Source of the DNA: Candidatus Methanoperedens sp.
GTDB lineage: Archaea > Halobacteriota > Methanosarcinia > Methanosarcinales > Methanoperedenaceae
Direction: 5' to 3'
Assembly: GCA_027460535.1 (NCBI GenBank)
Contig: JAPZAR010000032.1
Coordinates: 1 to 9,102 of the forward strand
DNA length: 9,102 nucleotides
A program made the position numbers and the translations under genes. Positions 1 to 9,102 of the stretch are shown piece after piece. Position 1 is the stretch's first letter. Every line of letters starts with the position of its first letter. The notes beneath the pieces are model-generated. The model had not been told where the DNA came from, ran no database searches, and worked only from the letters and a program-made list of their open reading frames with translations.

Positions 1-1637
1 ACATTACCCGTGTCATCCGAGGTATTTACGTTTGCATGCAATCCGAATAGGCTTGTATTCGTATAATACCGTGTTGCGTTATTTGAATGACATCCTATGC
101 ATCCACCGGTCGTTGTGGGTGTGGGATCATGAAGTTTCTGCGCCTGTGTACCCGGGACATTGACTCCGTGGCAGCCAGAGCAGTCCGCAGTGACCATGCC
201 TGTTGTATCATGTGGAGGATTTGGCGCTGATACAAATTGAGGAGCTTTCTGGACATGGCAGAGAACGCAATCGGCTTTTGCAGTTCCATCAAACGCATCT
301 CCTAATTCTGTTGTGAGTTCATGGAAAGACGAAGTATTATTTGCCCGAATATCCGCTGATACACTGGAATTTGTGTGGCATGTCCTGCATGTGGCATTTC
401 CATTCCAGCCCGGGTCATCATGATTGAACCGGGGAATTGTCTTGTTCAGAGCAGGGAATGGAGAGCTTGCATTCGGCCCATGGCAATAATCACAATATTT
501 CGATGTTGGAACTGCGGGTCTTTGTGCATAGTGAGAAGTTACGTTGGGGATTCCTGCTCCTGGATTTACTGTGACTTTACTGTGACAATCCAGGCAGGAA
601 TAATTTGTTACAGCAGGCAAGTGCGTGCGAACCTTCGGTGCCTGCGGGGCATCGGGCTGACCGCTCCCTGTGTGGCAGTCAGCGCACTGCCGGATATTGC
701 TTTTGTTCATATCCCTGTTAAAGTGACAGGTCCAGCAATCGCTGTTGTTCACCTGGCCAATTCCATCCGTTGTGTTTATATCGACATGCACACCCTGGCT
801 AAAGGCGGTTTTATTAACATTTCCTTGCAAACCACCGGGAATACCATCCACATGACACGAGATACAATCCTCAAAGACGTTCGTCTCGTTCCTGTAGTAG
901 TTATATATTGGGCCGCTGCCGTGGCACCCGTTACAAAAAACATCGCCCCCCGGGTTTTTATATGCACTGCTGTTAATATACCCGTAAACACCGTTTACAT
1001 CCGAACCATAAGCAATGGCAATGTCGCTCCGTGTCATTTTTGGATAATTTGTTCCATGGACATTATGACAGGCTGGGCAGGATTGATAAGAGGTCCTGTT
1101 ATTCAAACCGGCACCCGGATTGAGGTCAAACATGGCACCTCCATCCCAGTTAAAACTGCCGAAGTCATCCAGATGATCCCAGTGGATATTGACCGGGTAG
1201 TTGCGGAAACCGGCCGGAAGAAGGTTAATGAAATTAGTACCTATGGTTGATACATTGATGGGAGGATTCCTGTGATCAATGTCCTGGAAAAATTCTGGCA
1301 GAACGCCCACAACATTTTTTTCAGTATGGCAGTAATAGCAGAGCGAGAAATTTTGTGAATAATAACCTGTGGTCAGAGGACCGGTAATGTTGCTGCCATT
1401 TAATTGTCTTATGAATTGACCATGATTAGTGTCGTTATGATCAGTAGAATTCACATGGCAGTCAATACATTGAATGATGCTGTGGGGATTCGAATCGTAC
1501 AGGGATTGATTGATCGGCCGTGGATTTGGTGATACATGACACCCCCCATTAAAACAGGCATCATTCGGAGATGCACCGAGAACGCCTGGCACAAAAAAAA
1601 CAAAGAGGAGAGCTAACCCAAGGACAATTACCTTCAT
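1..1637 (-). CDS. Multiheme c-type cytochrome, paralog B (N-terminal 545 codons; 3' end lies beyond the left window edge)
   Basis: This gene is not in the ORF track because no stop codon lies in the window. My manual minus-strand translation from the ATG (1637-1635) is open to position 3: MKVIVLGLALLFVFFVPGVLGASPNDACFNGGCHVSPNPRPINQSLYDSNPHSIIQCIDCH...CIGCHSNNATRYYTNTSLFGLHANVNTSDDTGN. It has a hydrophobic signal-peptide-like N-terminus. It carries 13 CxxCH motifs (CIDCH, CYYCH, CPACH, CNGCH, CISCH, CWTCH, CADCH, CLDCH, CDYCH, CRTCH, CVLCH, CSGCH, CIGCH) and one CFNGGCH. It is colinear with the 836-aa neighbour and roughly 75-85% identical to it by eye. Confidence 0.9.
   Translation of the reverse strand, partial: MKVIVLGLALLFVFFVPGVLGASPNDACFNGGCHVSPNPRPINQSLYDSNPHSIIQCIDCHVNSTDHNDTNHGQFIRQLNGSNITGPLTTGYYSQNFSLCYYCHTEKNVVGVLPEFFQDIDHRNPPINVSTIGTNFINLLPAGFRNYPVNIHWDHLDDFGSFNWDGGAMFDLNPGAGLNNRTSYQSCPACHNVHGTNYPKMTRSDIAIAYGSDVNGVYGYINSSAYKNPGGDVFCNGCHGSGPIYNYYRNETNVFEDCISCHVDGIPGGLQGNVNKTAFSQGVHVDINTTDGIGQVNNSDCWTCHFNRDMNKSNIRQCADCHTGSGQPDAPQAPKVRTHLPAVTNYSCLDCHSKVTVNPGAGIPNVTSHYAQRPAVPTSKYCDYCHGPNASSPFPALNKTIPRFNHDDPGWNGNATCRTCHTNSSVSADIRANNTSSFHELTTELGDAFDGTAKADCVLCHVQKAPQFVSAPNPPHDTTGMVTADCSGCHGVNVPGTQAQKLHDPTPTTTGGCIGCHSNNATRYYTNTSLFGLHANVNTSDDTGN
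3..1574 (-). repeat. Copy 2 of a tandem gene-scale duplication (pairs with 2507-4093)
   Basis: The nucleotide and protein sequence is colinear with 2507-4093. The offset is 2504 nt at the left end and 2519 nt at the right end. The 15-nt difference is explained by five single-codon-scale indels. Confidence 0.85.
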
Positions 1638-1681
1638 TTTGATTTTATTTTGGAGTATTTTTGATTTCCGCATTATCTTCC

Positions 1682-4192
1682 TCATGTAACGGTAAAATTC
1701 GCACTTACAACACCGCTCCAATCGCCATTCAGTGGATAATATGGCTTAGACGTATCAGTCTTTGGTGCTGAAGCCATGCCCTTGACGTTGACGGTATAGT
1801 TGCCCTTGAGCTTTGAAGTATCAATGCTGGCGTTCACTGGCTGGATCGATAAGCTGAATCTCCCGCCGACGGGAGTCATATTTGTCCAGTCAATAATCAC
1901 GCCGGAAGCGTTGGCTACCTGATACTGGGCTGCAGCGATCTGCAACATGTCGTCGGTCACGGTAGCCTGGACTCCAGCGGGAACTCCAGATACGACGGGT
2001 GTGGTTATCGATAAACCCGAGATGGTGGGTGGCGTATTTGAATCTTTGTAAAGTACCGAATGATTATCATTTACAGGGAAACTCAGATTCGTCGAGTGAC
2101 AACCTTTACATCCAAGTATTCCGAAAACTGAATGCTTGGGTAACGTATCTATTTTTATTCCCGGCGCATGGAAGGGCAGATCAGGGAGATTGGCATTCTG
2201 GTGGCAGGTCAAACAGTTAATTCCAGAGGCCGTACCTTTTGGCCCGTTGGGGTGGTATTTTAATGTACCATTTAATGGTCGCGGCAGGGGGTCACCTGCG
2301 ATATGGCACCACTTGCAATCCGCTGAACCATGCCTTAAATTATTTTTCATCAGACCGGGGTCTGTGGGTTTGATCGGTCCTGTACCCGCGGCCGTGTGAC
2401 AGTCGTCACAGAAATAAGTATTGTTTTGATTCGCTGCCCCCAGTACCATTCTCATTGTTCCATTCGCCGAACCAAAGTGGCACGTCCTGCAATCGTCATC
2501 TGTAAGGTTATTCAAACCATCAGTATTATTGACGTTCGCATGCTTTCCGAACAAACTCATATTTACATAATATGTCCTTGAGCTGTTTGAATGACATGCT
2601 ATGCATCTGGTGGTCGTGATCTCAGTCACGCTATGGAGTTTTTGCGGCTGTGTACCATTGAGTCCAAGCCCGTGGCATTCATAGCAGTCCGCAGCGGCCA
2701 TGCCTGTAGTGTCATGTGAGGGATCGGGTGCCGATACAAATTGAGGGGCTTTCTGGATATGGCAAAGTACACAGTCGGCCTTTACCGTTCCATTGAATGT
2801 ATCCCCCAGTTCAGTTGTCATATCATGGAAAGAGGAAATATCATTAGCCAGAGGGTCCGCTGATACGCTGGAATTTGTATGGCATGTCCTGCATGTTGCA
2901 TCGGCATTCCAGTCGGGGTCATTATGCGAAAACTCAGGGATCGTCTTATTTACGGCAGGGAATGGAGAGCTCGCATTCGGTCCGTGGCAATAATCACAAT
3001 AGTTCGACGTCGGTACAATGGGTCTCAGTGCATAGTGGGAAGTTATATTGGGGATCCCCGCTCCGGGATTTATTATGGTTTTACTATGACAATCCATACA
3101 GGAATAGTTGGTAACAGCAGGCAAATGTGAATGAATCCTGGGTGCCTGCGGAGCCTCATATGTGCCGTTGCGCGTATGGCAGTCAGCGCACTGCCAGATA
3201 TTGCTCCTGTTCATATCCCTGTTAAAGTGACATGCCCAGCAGTCGCTATTATTCACAAGGCCAATTCCATCCGTTGTGTTTATATCGACATGCATACCCT
3301 GGCTAAAGGCGGTTCTATTAACATTTCCTTGCAAACCACCGGAAATACCATCCACATGGCACGATACACAATCCTCAAAAACGTTCGTTTCATTTCTGTA
3401 ATATTTATAGAACATGCCGTAAGAATGGCATCCATTACAGAATACATCCCCGCCCGGTAATTTGTATTCATAGCTATTAATATATCCAAAGTTTCCAATG
3501 GCATCAGAACCATAAGTAATTGCCAGGTCTTCTCTGGTCATTCTGGGAAAGTTCGTTCCATGGACATTATGACAGGCAGGGCAGGACTCGCGGGAAGACC
3601 TGTTATTGGTCAAGTTCGCACCGGGGTCCAGGTCAAACAGAGCTCCCACGCCCCAGCGTAAACTCCCGAAATCATCCAGGTGATCCCAGTGAATATTTGT
3701 GGGGTAATTTCCTCCGAAACTATAACCAGCCGAAAGATTATTGATGAAATTAGTACCAATATTTGAGACATTGACGGGAGGATTCCTGTGATCAATATCC
3801 ATGACATATCCCGGCAGAACGCCCACGACATTCTTTTCAGCATGGCAATAGTAACACAGGGAGAAATTCTGGGAATAATAACTTGAGGTCAGAGGACCGG
3901 TAATATTGCTGCCATTTAACTGCCTGATAAAAATGCCATGATTCGAGTCATTGACAGGATCGGTAGAGTTCACATGGCAGTCGATACACTTAATTATGCT
4001 ATGGGCATTAGAATTGTAAAGAGACTGGTTGATAGGCCGCGGATTTGGGGATACATGGCACCCCCCATTGAAACAGGCATCGTTCGGGGATGCGCTTGAA
4101 ACGCCCTGAATTGAGAATACGACAAAAGTAAATACAACCAAAAATATTCCTATTATTCCCATACTTTGCTGGAATATCTTTAATTTGCACAT
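1682..4192 (-). CDS. Secreted multiheme c-type cytochrome, paralog A (836 aa; 18 CxxCH + 1 CxxxxCH; heme-free C-terminal domain)
   Basis: This is the 836-aa ORF from the track. The N-terminus, MCKLKIFQQSMGIIGIFLVVFTFVVFSIQGVSSAS, looks like a signal peptide or anchor. An alternative start is M11 at 4162. I count 18 CxxCH heme-binding motifs plus CFNGGCH near the N-terminus, and about 37 N-x-S/T sequons. The last 137 aa (1685-2095) have no Cys or heme motif and look beta-rich. An SD-like AGGATAGGA lies just upstream of the ATG on the minus strand. Only 44 nt, with no T-run, separate its stop (1682-1684) from the paralog B start, which suggests co-transcription. Confidence 0.93.
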   Translation of the reverse strand: MCKLKIFQQSMGIIGIFLVVFTFVVFSIQGVSSASPNDACFNGGCHVSPNPRPINQSLYNSNAHSIIKCIDCHVNSTDPVNDSNHGIFIRQLNGSNITGPLTSSYYSQNFSLCYYCHAEKNVVGVLPGYVMDIDHRNPPVNVSNIGTNFINNLSAGYSFGGNYPTNIHWDHLDDFGSLRWGVGALFDLDPGANLTNNRSSRESCPACHNVHGTNFPRMTREDLAITYGSDAIGNFGYINSYEYKLPGGDVFCNGCHSYGMFYKYYRNETNVFEDCVSCHVDGISGGLQGNVNRTAFSQGMHVDINTTDGIGLVNNSDCWACHFNRDMNRSNIWQCADCHTRNGTYEAPQAPRIHSHLPAVTNYSCMDCHSKTIINPGAGIPNITSHYALRPIVPTSNYCDYCHGPNASSPFPAVNKTIPEFSHNDPDWNADATCRTCHTNSSVSADPLANDISSFHDMTTELGDTFNGTVKADCVLCHIQKAPQFVSAPDPSHDTTGMAAADCYECHGLGLNGTQPQKLHSVTEITTTRCIACHSNSSRTYYVNMSLFGKHANVNNTDGLNNLTDDDCRTCHFGSANGTMRMVLGAANQNNTYFCDDCHTAAGTGPIKPTDPGLMKNNLRHGSADCKWCHIAGDPLPRPLNGTLKYHPNGPKGTASGINCLTCHQNANLPDLPFHAPGIKIDTLPKHSVFGILGCKGCHSTNLSFPVNDNHSVLYKDSNTPPTISGLSITTPVVSGVPAGVQATVTDDMLQIAAAQYQVANASGVIIDWTNMTPVGGRFSLSIQPVNASIDTSKLKGNYTVNVKGMASAPKTDTSKPYYPLNGDWSGVVSANFTVT
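2507..4093 (-). repeat. Copy 1 of a tandem gene-scale duplication (pairs with 3-1574)
   Basis: See the paired feature. The duplication also explains why the plus-strand shadow ORFs at 375-1250 and 2879-3460 resemble each other. Confidence 0.85.
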
Positions 4193-4336
4193 TAGCGTCC
4201 TATCCTAATTGATAGTGTTTAATTTACAGGAAAATAAAACTTTCTCATGATTTTTTATTAAATATACGATAATGATAATTATAGCAGCATTTAAGGAATT
4301 CTTATTGTCATCATTGAACCAATGTCATCCCTGGCC
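4193..4336 (-). promoter_or_regulatory. AT-rich upstream region of the cytochrome operon (candidate archaeal TATA boxes; exact TSS unknown)
   Basis: This is the most AT-rich stretch of the window. On the minus strand it reads ...GCTATAATTATCATTATCGTATATTTAATAAAAAATCATGAGAAAGTTTTATTTTCC... about 40-90 nt upstream of the ATG at 4192. It contains several TATA-like octamers, and I cannot choose between them. Confidence 0.4.
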
Positions 4337-4354
4337 CCAGCCCCCGCATGTCCT

Positions 4355-4399
4355 AAAGCACCCTATTTATATATCCCGCGTTATATCTAAGAGCAGAAC
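4355..4399 (+). promoter_or_regulatory. wecB promoter block, repeat copy 1 (TATA box TTTATATA at 4366-4373)
   Basis: The 45-nt block AAAGCACCCTATTTATATATCCCGCGTTATATCTAAGAGCAGAAC lies directly before the ATG at 4400. The TATA box begins 34 nt upstream of the ATG, which implies a very short or absent leader. There is one mismatch to copies 3 and 4. Confidence 0.6.
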
Positions 4400-4519
4400 A
4401 TGAAGCTCATCTCCATAGTGGGCGCCCGTCCCCAGTTCATCAAGTGCGCGCCGCTGTCCCGGGAACTGCGGAGGGAGCATAAGGAGATACCGATGCACAC
4501 GGGGCAATACTGCGACTGA
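4400..4519 (+). pseudogene. wecB: UDP-GlcNAc 2-epimerase (wecB-like) 5' stub, 39 codons then stop
   Basis: The translation is [39 protein letters not shown]. The first ~60 nt are identical to copy 4 (8670 onward). Similarity to the full gene ends at about 4516. Confidence 0.8.
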
Positions 4520-4553
4520 AGGAAACACCGTTCTAATCAGGCTGTGGCATGTC

Positions 4554-4802
4554 ATGTGGTTGAAAGAGATCATCTGGATTGAAAAGTTCAAATCAAAGAT
4601 AGAGGTGAAGCATAATGTTACCGGTGAAGAAGTCGAAGAGGCCTTGCTCTCAAATGGTTTATTTCGCCGTGCACAGCGAGGTAGAGTGAAAGGAGAAGAT
4701 ATTTATGGTGCATATGGTCGAACTCATTCAGGGCGGTATCTTTTTATAGTATTCATTTATAAATCACCTATGATAGCACTCATAATATCTGCAAGAATAT
4801 GA
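4554..4802 (+). CDS. brnT: BrnT-like (DUF497) ribonuclease toxin, C-terminus apparently frameshifted
   Basis: This is an 82-aa ORF. IIWIEKFKSKIEVKHNVTGEEVEEAL...GRTHSGRYLFIVFIYKSPMIALIISARI fits the DUF497/BrnT pattern as I remember it (W.e.K....KH.V..eE.e ... GR.l.vv ... iISAR). It is followed by a BrnA-like gene. The expected tail (..ER..Y) is encoded in the -1 frame at 4799-4843. Confidence 0.72.
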   Translation: MWLKEIIWIEKFKSKIEVKHNVTGEEVEEALLSNGLFRRAQRGRVKGEDIYGAYGRTHSGRYLFIVFIYKSPMIALIISARI

Positions 4803-4826
4803 CAGTTCAAGAGCGGAAATACTACA

Positions 4827-5090
4827 ATGCCAAAAAAAGTTAAGAAAATACCGGAAGAGTTTAAAACATACGAAGAAGCTGCAGAGTTCTGGGATACCCA
4901 TAACAGCGCAGACTATCTGGATGAATTTGAAGATGTGGAAATTAAGGTCGACATTCAGAAAAGACATTATCTAATAGAATTGGATTCCAGAACAGCAGAA
5001 TTGCTTCAGGAATTGGCGAGGAAAAAAGGAGTTTCTGTCAATTATCTTGCAAATGAATTGCTACAGGGTCAACTTGCAGAAGCGGAATAA
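4827..5090 (+). CDS. brnA: BrnA-like antitoxin (N-terminal FWDTH block, C-terminal ribbon-helix-helix-like region)
   Basis: This is an 87-aa ORF. EEAAEFWDTHNSADYLDE is the block typical of BrnA-type antitoxins. The C-terminal IELDSRTAELLQELARKKGVSVNYLANELL looks RHH/CopG-like. The gene lies immediately downstream of brnT. Confidence 0.75.
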   Translation: MPKKVKKIPEEFKTYEEAAEFWDTHNSADYLDEFEDVEIKVDIQKRHYLIELDSRTAELLQELARKKGVSVNYLANELLQGQLAEAE

Positions 5091-5125: not shown

Positions 5126-5225
5126 ATGATTTTTGAATTTATGTGCGATGGGGACGACAATTTACTGCAGATGAACGCTCCGAGTCGCGCCTCGGGAGGC
5201 GCAACCACAAGCCTCCGCATGTTCA

Positions 5226-5270
5226 AAAGCGCCCTATTTATATATCCCGCGTTATATCTAAAAGCAGAAC
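5226..5270 (+). promoter_or_regulatory. wecB promoter block, repeat copy 2 (TATA 5237-5244)
   Basis: The block AAAGCGCCCTATTTATATATCCCGCGTTATATCTAAAAGCAGAAC has one mismatch to copies 3 and 4. The shared upstream extension GCAACCACAAGCCTCCGCATGTTCA (5201 onward) matches 8600 onward. Confidence 0.55.
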
Positions 5271-5461
5271 ATGAAAATCATCTCAATCGTGTGGCTCCCC
5301 CTCAGTTCATCAAGTGCGCGCCGCTATCACGCGAACTGCGGAAGGAGCATGAGGAGATACTTGTGCATACTGGGCAGCATTATGACCATGAATTATCTGA
5401 CATATTATTATCTGATATATTCTTTGAGGAGCCGGATGTACCGAAGCCTGACTCGGAATAG
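5271..5461 (+). pseudogene. wecB: wecB-like 5' fragment with 1-nt deletion (frameshift), 15-nt tandem duplication and truncation
   Basis: After MKIISIV the sequence GTGTGGCTCCCCCTCAGTTC (20 nt) replaces GTGGGCGCCCGCCCCCAGTTC (21 nt). The epimerase sequence continues in another frame: [56 protein letters not shown]. Similarity to the full gene stops at about 5450. Confidence 0.8.
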
Positions 5462-5702: not shown

Positions 5703-6128
5703 ATGATGAAAAAGAAACTTGTATCTAGAGCCAGCAATGATGAAATTGGAAAGGCAGTATCCGGGCTGAAAAAATTTGGATTTGTTCACTCGATTATCCT
5801 TTTTGGCTCACAGGCTAAGAGGACCGAAAGGACAGATAGCGATGTGGATTTATGTATCATACCGGAGCCGCATGTGGATGTGAGTTTAAAGGAGAGAATT
5901 GCCCTTAATAATGCAGTACCAGAACACATAGATATCTCCTTGTTTGGTGAATTGCCTGTATATATGCGCAAACGGGTTTTTCTTGAAGGGAAGGTGCTTT
6001 ACACGGAAGACCCCTATTACATATTGACCCTTGCAAAGGAAAATGATCTCGAATACTCCAGATACCAAAAGATGAAAAAAGACTACCATAAAGGTGTTAT
6101 GAAGCGTGTCAGGTTAAGGTTGGGATGA
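5703..6128 (+). CDS. mntA: Minimal nucleotidyltransferase (MNT) antitoxin, MntA-like
   Basis: This is a 141-aa ORF. ILFGSQAKRTERTDSDVDLCII is the GS...D.D nucleotidyltransferase-fold signature. An SD-like GAGGTGA (5689-5695) lies 7 nt upstream of the ATG. There is a 4-nt ATGA overlap with the downstream HEPN gene. Confidence 0.85.
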   Translation: MMKKKLVSRASNDEIGKAVSGLKKFGFVHSIILFGSQAKRTERTDSDVDLCIIPEPHVDVSLKERIALNNAVPEHIDISLFGELPVYMRKRVFLEGKVLYTEDPYYILTLAKENDLEYSRYQKMKKDYHKGVMKRVRLRLG

Positions 6129-6568
6129 TTGATTTGGACAGCGAAAGGCTTATTGAAAAAATGGATGAACTGGAAAGGTACCTGAGAGAGCTTGAGGAAT
6201 ACATTCCTCCGGATGAAGAGGATTATTTAAAAAGCGGGATGAGGAAAAGGGCATGTGAAAGGGCATTCCAGTTGGCAAGCGAGAACTTATTGGATATCTG
6301 CAACTTAATAATATCGGAGGAAGGGTTCGGAATACCTGCCGACAGTAAAGATACGGTACGAAAGCTTGGCGAGCATGGTATAATATCAAAATCGCTGGCA
6401 TCCAGACTTGAAGAGCTTATCGGATTTCGAAATCTGCTTGTTCATCAGTATGGAAGAGTGGATGATTCCAGAGCATACAATTATCTGTATGAAGATTCAA
6501 AAGATTTTTATGAATTCCTTGAAGTTATTGAAAAATATATTAATTCCAAAAGTGAATCAGAAAATTAA
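6125..6568 (+). CDS. hepT: HEPN-domain (DUF86) RNase toxin, HepT-like
   Basis: This is a 147-aa ORF. FRNLLVHQY matches the R-x4-H-x-Y HEPN/DUF86 active-site motif. The gene is translationally coupled to the MNT gene through the ATGA at 6125-6128. Confidence 0.88.
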   Translation: MIDLDSERLIEKMDELERYLRELEEYIPPDEEDYLKSGMRKRACERAFQLASENLLDICNLIISEEGFGIPADSKDTVRKLGEHGIISKSLASRLEELIGFRNLLVHQYGRVDDSRAYNYLYEDSKDFYEFLEVIEKYINSKSESEN

Positions 6569-6587
6569 AAGGATCGCCTGAATAATA

Positions 6588-6632
6588 AAAGCGCCCTATT
6601 TATATATCCCGCGTTATATCTAAGAGCAGAAC
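6588..6632 (+). promoter_or_regulatory. wecB promoter block, repeat copy 3 (TATA 6599-6606)
   Basis: The block AAAGCGCCCTATTTATATATCCCGCGTTATATCTAAGAGCAGAAC is identical to copy 4. It starts only 19 nt after the hepT stop. Confidence 0.6.
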
Positions 6633-7507
6633 ATGAAAATCATCTCCATCGTGGGCGCCCGCCCCCAGTTCATCAAGTGCGCGCCGCTTTCCCGGGAACT
6701 GCGGAGTGAGCACGAGGAAGTGCTGGTGCATACGGGGCAGCACTATGACCGTGAGATGTCAGAGATATTTTTTGAGGAGCTTAATATCCCGAAGCCTGAT
6801 TACAATCTGGGCATTGGCTCAGGCAGCCATGGCGAGCAGACAGGGAAGATGCTTATTGAAATAGAGAAAGTGCTTCTGAAAGAAAAACCGGACTTGGTGC
6901 TGGTATACGGTGACACCAACTCCACTCTTGCAGGCGCGCTGGCTGCTGCGAAGCTCCATATAAGGGTGGCGCATGTGGAAGCTGGATTGCGCAGTTTTGA
7001 CAGGAGCATGCCCGAGGAAATCAACAGGGTGCTGACAGACCATATATCTGACCTGTTGTTTTGCCCAGCAGGGAGAACATGACGAATATCATGGGGGCGC
7101 TGGGTGAGGCAGGGGGGGTTGTGGTGTTTCCTGTGCATCCGAGGACTGAGAAATGTCTGAAGGAATATGGGCTGATGATGCCTGGGAATGTGAAGCTGAT
7201 CAAGCCCCTGGGGTATCTGGATATGCTTAAGCTTATGGCAAGTGCGAAGAAGATACTGACCGATTCAGGAGGTATTCAGAAGGAGGCGTATGTGCTCGGA
7301 GTGCCGTGCATCACGCTGCGGGAGAATACGGAGTGGGTGGAGACGCTGGAGGGAGGGTGGAATGTGCTGGTGGGGGCGGATAAGGGCAAGATTATAGAGG
7401 CAGTGAAATGCTGTTATCCATCTGTAACGCAGAAGGATATATTCGGCAGCGCAGGAGCGAGCGGAAGGATTTTAAGCTCCATTGCTGACATTTCATATGT
7501 AATATGA
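6633..7507 (+). pseudogene. wecB: wecB-like UDP-GlcNAc 2-epimerase with internal deletion and frame change (two ORFs, 6633-7082 and 7061-7507)
   Basis: The N-terminal ORF (149 aa) ends ...[18 protein letters not shown]. The second ORF, in another frame, reads (L)[28 protein letters not shown]...LTDSGGIQKEA...PCITLRENTEWVETLEGGWNVLVG. Together they give about 297 aa, against about 360-380 aa for known non-hydrolysing epimerases such as E. coli WecB. The segment between the ..FxPT.. and ..HR.EN.. landmarks, about 70 aa, is missing. The junction lies at about 7065-7075. Confidence 0.75.
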
Positions 7508-7643: not shown

Positions 7644-7898
7644 ATGAAAATAATATTTACAGATCATGCTAAGGTCAAGTTCAAAATCTTAAAACAACAT
7701 GGATTTGAAATAAATGAAAAACAAGTTAAAAATATCATAGAAAATCCCGATACTAAGACCAAGGGGAGAAAAGACCGGCTTATTGTTCAAGGTCTGGTTG
7801 ATGATATTCATGTGATAAGAGTTATATGTGAAATTGAGAGTAATAATATTAAAGTTATTACATTTTATCCTACCAGGAGAGAAAGATATGAAAATTAG
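7644..7898 (+). CDS. DUF4258-like putative toxin
   Basis: This is an 84-aa ORF. MKIIFTDHAKVKFKILKQHGFEINEKQVKNIIENP...IHVIRVICEIESNNIKVITFYPTRRE fits the DUF4258 pattern as I remember it (..t.HA..r...rgI....v..vi.nP ... viTvy). It overlaps the downstream DUF2283-like gene by 11 nt. A TATA-like CTTATATATTAAT lies about 90 nt upstream. Confidence 0.62.
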   Translation: MKIIFTDHAKVKFKILKQHGFEINEKQVKNIIENPDTKTKGRKDRLIVQGLVDDIHVIRVICEIESNNIKVITFYPTRRERYEN

Positions 7899-8106
7899 TT
7901 ATAATCGTGAACAAGATATTCTCATGTATGAAGTAAGTGATGAACCTATAGACTATGCTGAGGAAGTTGGACCCATTATAGTTCATTTCAGCAAAAAGGG
8001 AAAACCTGTACTTATGGAGATACTGGATGCAAGCGAATTTATTGCAGTGACAACCAAGATTACCATGCAATCCAGGAATGAAAATCCTGTTGAAGCTCTA
8101 TCATAA
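7888..8106 (+). CDS. DUF2283-like putative antitoxin
   Basis: MKISYNREQDILMYEVSDEPIDYAEEVGPIIVHFSKKGKPVLMEILDASEFI matches the DUF2283 pattern (M.i.YD.e.D.LyI.l......e.E....iil.....G..vGiEIldAS). I prefer the ATG at 7888, which is preceded by AGGAGAGAAAG, over the track start at 7828. The track start would lie inside the toxin gene. Confidence 0.75.
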   Translation: MKISYNREQDILMYEVSDEPIDYAEEVGPIIVHFSKKGKPVLMEILDASEFIAVTTKITMQSRNENPVEALS

Positions 8107-8175: not shown

Positions 8176-8330
8176 GAAAATGGCTGATTCAGGCAAAGCA
8201 CTGGGAGAGGCATGTGATCTGATAGTGCCGTGCATTAAGCTGATGCAAAACACGTAATGGTTGAGGACGCTGGAGGGGTGGAATGTGCTGGTTGGGGGTG
8301 GATAAAAGCAAGATTGTGGGGGCTGGGTTC
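8176..8330 (+). pseudogene. wecB: Degenerate 3' remnant of another wecB-like copy (possibly extending to ~8400)
   Basis: This stretch aligns by eye with 7255-7400 of copy 3. The remnant reads DSGKALGEACDLIVPCIKLMQNT*WLRTLEG-WNVLVGG-DKSKI against DSGGIQKEAYVLGVPCITLRENTEWVETLEGGWNVLVGADKGKI. It has an in-frame TAA (8255-8257) and at least two frame shifts. Confidence 0.6.
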
Positions 8331-8475: not shown

Positions 8476-8624
8476 TGCGCGGAGTCGAGAACCCGCAGGG
8501 TTTCGGCATGATGAACGCAGATTTGCTGACAGGGATTAGGATATATTTGATTACATGAACTATATATTTCCATAGTTGTGGCGCCCTGTGAGAACCGGGG
8601 CAACCACCAGCCTCCGCATGTCCA

Positions 8625-8669
8625 AAAGCGCCCTATTTATATATCCCGCGTTATATCTAAGAGCAGAAC
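8625..8669 (+). promoter_or_regulatory. wecB promoter block, repeat copy 4 (TATA 8636-8643)
   Basis: The block AAAGCGCCCTATTTATATATCCCGCGTTATATCTAAGAGCAGAAC lies directly upstream of the only uninterrupted epimerase reading frame. Confidence 0.65.
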
Positions 8670-9102
8670 ATGAAGCTCATCTCCATAGTGGGCGCCCGTC
8701 CCCAGTTCATCAAGTGCGCGCCGCTGTCAAGAGAACTGCGAAAAGAACATGAGGAAATTTTGGTTCACACGGGGCAGCACTACGACCATGATATGTCAGA
8801 GATATTTTTTGAGGAGCTTAATATCCCGAAGCCTGATTACAATCTGGGCATTGGCTCAGGCAGCCATGGCGAGCAGACAGGGAAGATGCTTATTGAAATA
8901 GAAAAGGTAATGATAAAGGAAAAGCCGGATATCGTTCTGGTCTACGGCGACACCAACTCCACCCTTGCAGGCGCGCTGGCTGCTGCGAAGCTCCATATAA
9001 GGGTGGCGCATGTGGAAGCTGGATTGCGCAGTTTTGACAGGAGCATGCCCGAGGAAATCAACAGGGTGCTGACAGACCATATATCTGACCTGTTGTTTTG
9101 CC
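8670..9102 (+). CDS. wecB: UDP-N-acetylglucosamine 2-epimerase (non-hydrolysing, WecB/MnaA-like), N-terminal 144 codons; continues past the right window edge
   Basis: This gene is not in the ORF track because there is no stop in the window. My manual translation is [144 protein letters not shown]. It shows the classical epimerase N-terminal landmarks (GxRPxx[30 protein letters not shown]). Confidence 0.85.

Follow-up and report, generated by a model that had tools for sequence, protein, structure and literature searches.

The left-hand part of contig JAPZAR010000032.1 raises the question of what two adjacent genes for large multiheme c-type cytochromes do for the archaeon that carries them, and of how the pair arose. 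This complete contig of 9,102 nucleotides (nt), from a metagenome-assembled genome (MAG) of Candidatus Methanoperedens, was analysed over its whole length and is referred to here as the window. Gene A (1682..4192 including the stop codon, minus strand) is an open reading frame (ORF) whose translation is a complete multiheme c-type cytochrome of 836 amino acids, and gene B (1..1673, minus strand) comprises the 5′ 60%, or 557 codons, of a 920-residue paralog that is truncated at the contig end. Judged from their sequences, A and B arose by lineage-specific tandem duplication of a gene for a predicted extracytoplasmic cytochrome of about 920 residues and 19 hemes, and they probably constitute an operon for two secreted, probably glycosylated, bis-histidine (bis-His) heme conduits for extracellular electron transfer.

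The two genes share one strand, and the translated frame of B contains no stop codon between about position 1700 and the left end of the window, as was expected from an earlier first-pass annotation that recognised two co-oriented paralogous multiheme genes. That annotation placed the start of B at 1637, which gave 545 visible residues and a gap of 44 nt. In the NCBI model of B (P0013), however, the start is the ATG at 1673, and the leader of B then aligns with that of A residue for residue. B most likely begins at this codon, with 557 codons visible and a spacer of only 8 nt (GGAAGATA; 1674..1681, minus strand, by direct reading of the sequence), and genes called independently on L033, an ENA contig that matches window positions 1-3085 at 99.94% identity with 2 mismatches, are again 8 nt apart (1-1404 and 1413-4175). 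Since such a spacer is too short for a promoter or terminator, A and B are best read as one operon. A Shine-Dalgarno-like GAGG overlaps the stop codon of A, and a TATA-like, AT-rich element (TATATTTAATAAAAAA; 4251..4266, minus strand, also read directly) lies 59-74 nt 5′ of the start of A; for the A-B operon, it can be put forward only as a candidate promoter of archaeal type. B is indeed missing from the ORF list with which the first-pass annotation worked, but for the trivial reason that the lister omits ORFs that run off the end of a sequence. In the public databases, protein A is identical to the NCBI entry P0001, 'hypothetical protein [Candidatus Methanoperedens sp.]', which bears out the earlier assignment of the window to a methane-oxidising archaeon, and B is deposited from the same MAG as 'NapC/NirT family cytochrome c, partial'.

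Both products open with a colinear leader of 34 residues ahead of the common sequence ASPNDACF. The predicted signal peptide of A (residues 1-34; 4091..4192, minus strand) was recognised by inspection and from the family alignment, and that of B (residues 1-34; 1572..1673, minus strand) by inspection and from the NCBI start. The leaders begin with MCKLKIFQQS in A and MRKSKILQNK in B, and each consists of a basic start (Lys-rich in A), a hydrophobic core and a conserved V-x-(G/A/S) site that abuts ASPNDACF. Export is a prerequisite for c-type cytochromes, to which heme is attached outside the cytoplasm, and A and B are both predicted to be exported by way of a signal peptide cleaved before ASPNDACF.

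The leader of A is followed by a heme domain (residues 35-719; 2036..4090, minus strand) with 19 heme motifs and 18 conserved histidines outside them. Eighteen of the motifs are CxxCH, and the first is CX4CH (C40-FNGG-C45-H46). The visible part of B contains 13 CxxCH motifs and the same first site, 14 in all, so that the recount agrees with the first-pass totals of 19 and 14 while correcting the form of the first site. Shuffled sequences of A, by comparison, contain 0.09 CxxCH motifs on average and 2 at most. The first site is a plain CFACH in the relative P0021 and is retained in 22 of the 22 family members that cover the position, which makes CX4CH a credible heme site. In the family alignment, each of the 19 sites of A has a counterpart in 22-25 of the 25 members, and the heme sites of B are colinear with the family throughout. 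Aligned by BLASTP, A and visible B are 75% identical across 547 residues, and all 14 heme sites common to them are retained (14/14), as previously claimed for the aligned part. Overall, A and B have an amino-acid identity of 73-75%, which corresponds to the upper part of the 15-25% divergence first estimated, and their DNA identity is only about 78%. The five small indels reported at first pass are correct as a count of gapped residues, but these fall into only 3 separate events.

The 3′ end of B was recovered through L033. The 90%-identity cluster of B includes a 920-residue protein on that contig (P0056), and this full-length B has neither a stop nor a frameshift; it contains 19 heme sites (18 CxxCH and 1 CX4CH), followed by an immunoglobulin-like (Ig-like) domain and a CarboxypepD_reg domain.

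The heme domain itself has a repetitive make-up. A recurring H-x-(D/N)-(I/V)-N module had been noted and attributed to internal duplication, and the present comparison is in accord with this: the module, H-x-[DN]-[IV]-N-x-[TS]-[DG]...DCxxCHF, occurs at A301 and A551, within two four-heme units (residues 252-344 and 503-604) that are 32% identical when the halves of A are compared by BLASTP (E 2e-9). The first unit (hemes 5-8; 3161..3439, minus strand) was found both in this search and in the comparison of A with B, and the second (hemes 13-16; 2381..2686, minus strand) by BLASTP. Larger blocks are repeated in relatives such as P0021 (1,258 residues), and P0036, P0045 and a third paralog, C, which is described below, carry differing N-terminal modules on one common core. 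Modular growth of these proteins by internal duplication and module exchange is thus well supported by their sequences.

Outside the heme motifs, 18 of the 20 histidines of A are conserved at 90% or more in the family, which is sufficient for bis-His ligation of nearly all hemes, and the pattern appears typical of electron-transfer cytochromes rather than of catalytic ones. A heme-free insert of 90 residues, to which no family could be assigned, lies between hemes 3 and 4 in A and B. In addition, A contains 37 N-x-S/T sequons, compared with 12.1 ± 3.0 in shuffled sequences. This three-fold excess fits an N-glycosylated archaeal surface glycoprotein, and suggests that A and its relatives are heavily N-glycosylated proteins of the cell surface. 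Sequons are also numerous in B (36), in C (28) and in neighbouring cytochromes on contig L001. Glycan-related genes occur close by, namely the wecB copies to the right of A and GT4 glycosyltransferase genes on L033 and on the contig of C, L034.

Profile searches show c-type cytochrome homology, which was among the points raised at first pass. PF14522 (Cytochrome_C7) scores 83.1 bits with A and 62.2 bits with B against a cut-off of 24.8, matching 5-6 stretches, and PF14537 (Cytochrom_c3_2) scores 45.6 and 41.4 bits against a cut-off of 25. By the sequence features that define the class, A and B are c7/c3-type multiheme cytochromes.

A neighbour-joining tree (23 sequences, 837 columns, 200 bootstraps) unites A and B as sisters in 193 of the 200 bootstraps and joins both to P0002 in all 200. 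The sister grouping indicates that the duplication is specific to this lineage, and the branch lengths of 0.186 for A and 0.142 for B that A has evolved only slightly faster. The ratio of non-synonymous to synonymous divergence (dN/dS) was obtained by the Nei-Gojobori method, with dS near saturation and the ratios therefore approximate. For the 545 codons compared within the window, dS is 1.12, dN 0.152 and dN/dS 0.136, and for the 818 codons aligned between A and full-length B, dS is 1.25, dN 0.187 and dN/dS 0.15. Taken region by region, the ratio is 0.08 in the N-terminal heme module, 0.18 in the core and 0.15 in the Ig-like domain, none of which is relaxed. Both copies are clearly under purifying selection, and the earlier view of an old duplication with both copies selected holds over both codon sets (dS 1.1-1.25, dN/dS 0.14-0.15).

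The family to which the pair belongs appears largely confined to Methanoperedens. About 50 close relatives were found, nearly all of them labelled Methanoperedens, and a scan of species-representative genomes yielded full-length homologs in about ten Methanoperedens species; the identity is 61% for the homolog from BLZ2, 48% for that from MAG MnB_21 and 52% for that from MAG FeB_1. In an exhaustive profile search of a representative library, which gave 3,866 matches, the whole architecture recurred in only three or four 50%-identity clusters. A profile search of a protein database, made for a deeper alignment, added just 7 sequences. Matches in Chloroflexota and Nitrospirota reach 28-38% identity and mostly cover the N-terminal module only (residues ~67-270), with a few from Chloroflexota extending to residue about 570-730. 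The module shared with Caldilineales and Nitrospirota (contigs L015-L032) includes the invariant sequences NIHW[DN]HLD and SCPACHNVHG. This distribution hints at transfer of the N-terminal module between domains of life. A scan of viral contigs found no relatives of the family, and hence no sign of viral carriage within that collection.

Complete orthologs in Methanoperedens are 903-949 residues long, and all except P0017, which has an aberrant end, terminate in ...KP[TK]GxIxGxV.... When A is set against the orthogroup of about 915-925 residues to which these belong (for example the BLZ2 homolog on NZ_NTMG01000006.1, 61% identical, and P0002, 66%), it has the same signal peptide, the ASPNDACF start, the 19 heme sites in the same order, the histidines and the Ig-like domain. 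B shares the entire architecture, whereas A lacks the CarboxypepD_reg domain (...KPTGxIxGxVxxK). A is the only complete member to end earlier, at ...SANFTVT, directly after the last strand of its C-terminal Ig-like beta-sandwich (residues 720-836; 1685..2035, minus strand), which was delimited by AlphaFold2, Foldseek and dN/dS; the terminal segment that it lacks, about 85 residues, is the CarboxypepD_reg domain present in full-length B on L033. The C-terminal half of the family (hemes 13-19, Ig-like and CarboxypepD_reg) also terminates many cytochromes of 1,200-2,800 residues. The close tandem arrangement distinguishes this locus from the others, where the ortholog is a single copy between more distantly related multiheme cytochrome genes. 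In four other Methanoperedens contigs, including that of BLZ2, it sits amid larger genes of this kind, and on L001 the flanking cytochromes have 43 and 15 hemes and the same C-terminal tail. Arrays of related multiheme cytochrome genes are the rule in Methanoperedens.

Taken together, these observations make it probable that A and B encode conduits for extracellular electron transfer. The two genes would be transcribed as a single unit from a promoter 5′ of A, with translation of B beginning 8 nt past the stop codon of A, and both products would leave the cytoplasm by means of a 34-residue Sec-type signal peptide, cleaved ahead of ASPNDACF. Each would then be loaded with 19 covalent, mostly bis-His hemes by the archaeal CcmABCEF machinery, which has been reported broadly across anaerobic methanotrophic (ANME) archaea (PMC9084895), and both would probably be heavily N-glycosylated. 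Outside the membrane, the hemes would form an electron-conducting chain. Electrons from methane oxidation would arrive through membrane menaquinol:cytochrome c oxidoreductases, for which dedicated gene clusters have been described in Methanoperedens (PMC7327174), and the chain would pass them on to metal oxides, electrodes or partner cells; subsets of Methanoperedens multiheme cytochromes are upregulated during electron transfer to iron or electrodes (PMC10542353, PMC10874420). As B, in common with the complete orthologs, ends in an Ig-like and then a CarboxypepD_reg (transthyretin-like) domain and A stops exactly at the boundary between the two, the conduits would differ from each other at their distal or attachment end.

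Several points weigh against this proposal. AlphaFold2 gave a mean predicted local distance difference test score (pLDDT) of 38.8 for the whole of A, modelled with 25 sequences, and for the heme domain, modelled without heme from 55 sequences, a pLDDT of 52.6 with a predicted template modelling score (pTM) of 0.33. Residues 720-836 are the only confident part of the model (pLDDT about 75-95). Moreover, searches of the PDB with A and with the family profile returned no related cytochrome, and Foldseek found no matches to the heme-domain model of pLDDT 52.6. A continuous heme chain may be expected by analogy from the family type. The genes that neighbour the pair in the window, toxin-antitoxin modules and wecB fragments, lend no functional support, and the N-terminal leader, whose cleavage was judged by eye, may remain in place as an uncleaved anchor.

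Alternatively, in line with the heteromeric or alternately expressed pair that the first-pass annotation had put forward as a possibility, the two products might assemble with each other, as a heteromeric conduit or co-polymer in which, for example, an anchored B carries or nucleates an anchor-less A. An 8-nt linkage would favour synthesis in equimolar amounts, purifying selection acts on both copies, and the difference between their C-termini is systematic. The Ig-like domain is kept in both, and the dimerisation domain of sulfite oxidases is among its best fold matches. These matches are nevertheless generic, as Foldseek returned Ig-like and E-set domains in general for the C-terminal domain of A. 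The family is also single-copy elsewhere, as with P0002 on contig L002, so that a partner paralog is dispensable and not required for function. An assembly of A with B is accordingly considered distinctly unlikely.

The proposed electron conduits can be compared with several better-known cytochromes. The modular c7/c3-type polymer cytochromes of Geobacter, of which the dodecaheme GSU1996 is an example, resemble A and B in their short heme-module repeats, their internal duplication and a bis-His ligation that is likewise expected here. Differences are the archaeal host, the additional beta-sandwich domains and the 90-residue heme-free insert of A and B, and no PDB chain of the Geobacter group could be detected by sequence or profile search. 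Geobacter OmcZ is similar in having a heme domain followed by one or more C-terminal beta-sandwich domains, although neither A nor the family profile matches its structures (7lq5, 8d9m) at E ≤ 1. It has 8 hemes where A and B have 19. OmcZ has the protease OzpA, and the window contains no protease gene; that A or B is processed by proteolysis would be pure conjecture. With MtrC, OmcA and MtrF of Shewanella, the likeness lies in the presumed role as an extracellular terminal conduit. Domains II/IV of MtrC/MtrF (PF22113) match B with 68.5 bits against a cut-off of 30, and A not at all at E ≤ 1. Unlike the MtrC family, A and B have no lipoprotein signal and no porin partner, they match no PDB chain of that family, and archaea have no outer membrane. 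There is no cysteine at or near the predicted cleavage site, as the only one in the leader of A is at residue 2 and the leader of B has none; the first cysteine past the leader in both is that of CFNGGCH, 6 residues after the predicted site. The S-layer domain (PF07752) that marks the S-layer-fused cytochromes of ANME archaea is absent from A and B, and present in the distant relatives P0045, P0050 and P0203.

The name under which B was deposited raises a further alternative, in which A and B are membrane-anchored quinol dehydrogenases of the NapC/NirT/NrfH type, with an uncleaved helix and a first heme fed by menaquinol. A and B do resemble this family in an N-terminal hydrophobic helix that closely precedes a heme site, and weak matches to NrfH (TIGR03153), at residues 13-77 in A and 3-65 in B, take in both this helix and heme 1. 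The matches score 23-26 bits, however, against a cut-off of 134, and those to TorC 16-24 bits against 455. PF03264 barely exceeds its cut-off of 24.1 (26.3 bits for A, 40.9 for B), and does so internally, at residues 230-371, rather than at the N-terminus. Proteins of the NapC/NirT/NrfH family are tetra- or pentaheme cytochromes of about 140-200 residues, and A and B, with 836 and 920 residues and 19 hemes each, have the wrong architecture for membership. Furthermore, the signal-peptidase-like site V-x-small before ASP is conserved after the helix in all family members, and dedicated menaquinol:cytochrome c oxidoreductase clusters have already been described in Methanoperedens (PMC7327174). 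The quinol dehydrogenase alternative is therefore very improbable.

It is likewise highly doubtful that the duplication left A as a truncated copy in decay, with B alone functional. A is the only complete family member without CarboxypepD_reg, and its branch is somewhat longer (0.186 as against 0.142). Yet with dS at about 1.25, dN/dS is still 0.15, and a ratio this low between A and B argues that A is no decaying remnant. A retains every one of its 19 heme motifs, its conserved histidines and an intact Ig-like domain (dN/dS 0.15), there is no internal stop, and the truncation falls exactly on a domain boundary. A reading of A as a pseudogene was rejected on the ratio together with the integrity of every site.

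It is barely credible that misassembly produced the tandem pair, by collapsing paralogs from elsewhere in the genome or joining them into a chimera, even though the contig ends in repeats (the core shared by B and C on the left, the repeated wecB copies on the right) and the assemblies are clearly confused downstream of B, since the A-B junction lies in unique sequence, with A and B only about 78% identical as DNA, and since it recurs, together with the truncated end of A, both in a contig of 8,709 bp from a second MAG and in L033 (2 mismatches in 3,085 nt).

The confusion downstream of B is nevertheless instructive. Paralog C (L034, 9719-11941; JAPZAT010000035.1 of GCA_027460495.1) is located on a 143-kb contig of a second MAG from the same NCBI series. 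Its ORF encodes 740 residues with 17 hemes; the NCBI model, of 646 residues, begins at a methionine within a CxxCH motif and is probably mis-started. The first ~100 residues of C form an unrelated, short four-heme module, joined to the core at 'DCxxCHVD', and its homology to B begins with what is the sixth heme in A and B, so that an N-terminal module of five hemes and 270 residues in A and B corresponds to one of four hemes and 100 residues in C. C, like B, has the terminal CarboxypepD_reg domain that A lacks. Window positions 1-820 are 96.1% identical to L034 10851-10032, and 26 of the 32 mismatches fall within 702-816. Only 6 differences separate B from C in the remaining 700 nt (1..700, minus strand, matched to L034 at ~99%), and the identity is about 99% across the 3′ 1.1-1.9 kb of the two genes. 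Such near-identity points to recent duplication or gene conversion, and it is the probable explanation for the end of the contig inside B.

Two contigs of a single assembly, L035 and L036, begin at the same codon of a B/C-type gene. L035 leads on into a context of DUF5658, radical S-adenosylmethionine (SAM) and glycosyltransferase genes; in L036, the last 488 nt of the gene are 96% identical, and a different genomic context follows. L033 and L034 both run into the DUF5658 context downstream. On the simplest reading, this is a two-copy repeat that short reads do not bridge, in which the 5′ part of either B or C leads into the shared core and thence into either 3′ flank; co-existing strains may contribute to the pattern. 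In L036 (1-10449; ENA ERZ27247940 k141_108712), the 3′ end of the B/C-type gene is convergent with genes for an S8 peptidase, TIG-domain proteins and two 8-heme cytochromes. These two proteins match the OmcZ structures 8d9m/7lq5 (E 7e-47 and 2e-38), and the cluster of OmcZ homologs with an S8 protease resembles the OmcZ/OzpA-like cluster of Methanoperedens that is upregulated on electrodes (Ouboter et al. 2024, PMC10874420). That B or C adjoins a cluster of this kind supports, if only circumstantially, a part played in extracellular electron transfer. Radical SAM genes also occur a few genes downstream of family members on L033 (9153-10262) and L002 (12065-13534); one of the encoded proteins has a SPASM domain, the other a B12-binding domain.

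The remaining features of the window lie opposite B and to the right of A. An ORF antisense to B (375-1250, plus strand, 291 codons) has no Pfam or family match and is most likely spurious; the homologous antisense region of A carries only short ORFs of 66-109 residues. Scans of the window with Rfam and for tRNA genes gave no matches. Between 4327 and 9102, the promoter (CCCTATTTATATATCCCGCGTTATATCTAAGAGCAGAACATGAA) and 5′ end of a gene for a wecB-like UDP-N-acetylglucosamine 2-epimerase are present in four direct copies on the plus strand (4327-4539, 5198-5451, 6560-7507 and 8597-9102). In the third copy, Pfam profile positions 131-197 are missing and the frame is split between two ORFs, and a wecB-like 3′ fragment is found at 8207-8277 (plus strand). 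Interspersed with the copies are three toxin-antitoxin modules, BrnT/CopG-antitoxin (4554-5090), MntA/HepT (5703-6568) and DUF4258/DUF2283 (7644-8106). The arrangement suggests that toxin-antitoxin cassettes inserted repeatedly at one target, the 5′ end of which was duplicated. No integrase was found in this interval, and no respiratory genes to the right of A within the window. The right-hand end of the contig is attributable to the repeated wecB array.

Electrons are proposed to pass from methane-oxidising archaea to minerals, electrodes and partner cells by way of large multiheme cytochromes. Methanoperedenaceae have an average of 26 multiheme cytochromes per genome, and the 414 that have been classified fall into 82 poorly conserved orthogroups (PMC7327174). 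A and B are ordinary members of this known Methanoperedens repertoire, already present in public databases and uncharacterised. Although no new principle emerges from the locus, it illustrates cleanly how the repertoire diversifies, with an old tandem duplicate maintained by selection, the loss of one terminal domain, and a third copy in which the N-terminal module has been swapped. Beyond the routine are the loss of the domain of A exactly at its boundary and the near-identical core shared with C, which point to ongoing module exchange. Near-identical cores of this kind break short-read assemblies, and as a consequence cytochrome genes in such MAGs are systematically truncated, split or mis-started, as exemplified by B and C.

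A more far-reaching and rather unlikely extension is that A, B and C belong to a recombining cassette system, with a core homogenised by gene conversion, alternative N-terminal modules and an optional terminal beta-sandwich. If true, A may be natively 'pre-processed' and releasable, in analogy with OmcZ after trimming by its protease, and such a system would let a Methanoperedens population vary both ends of its extracellular conduits.

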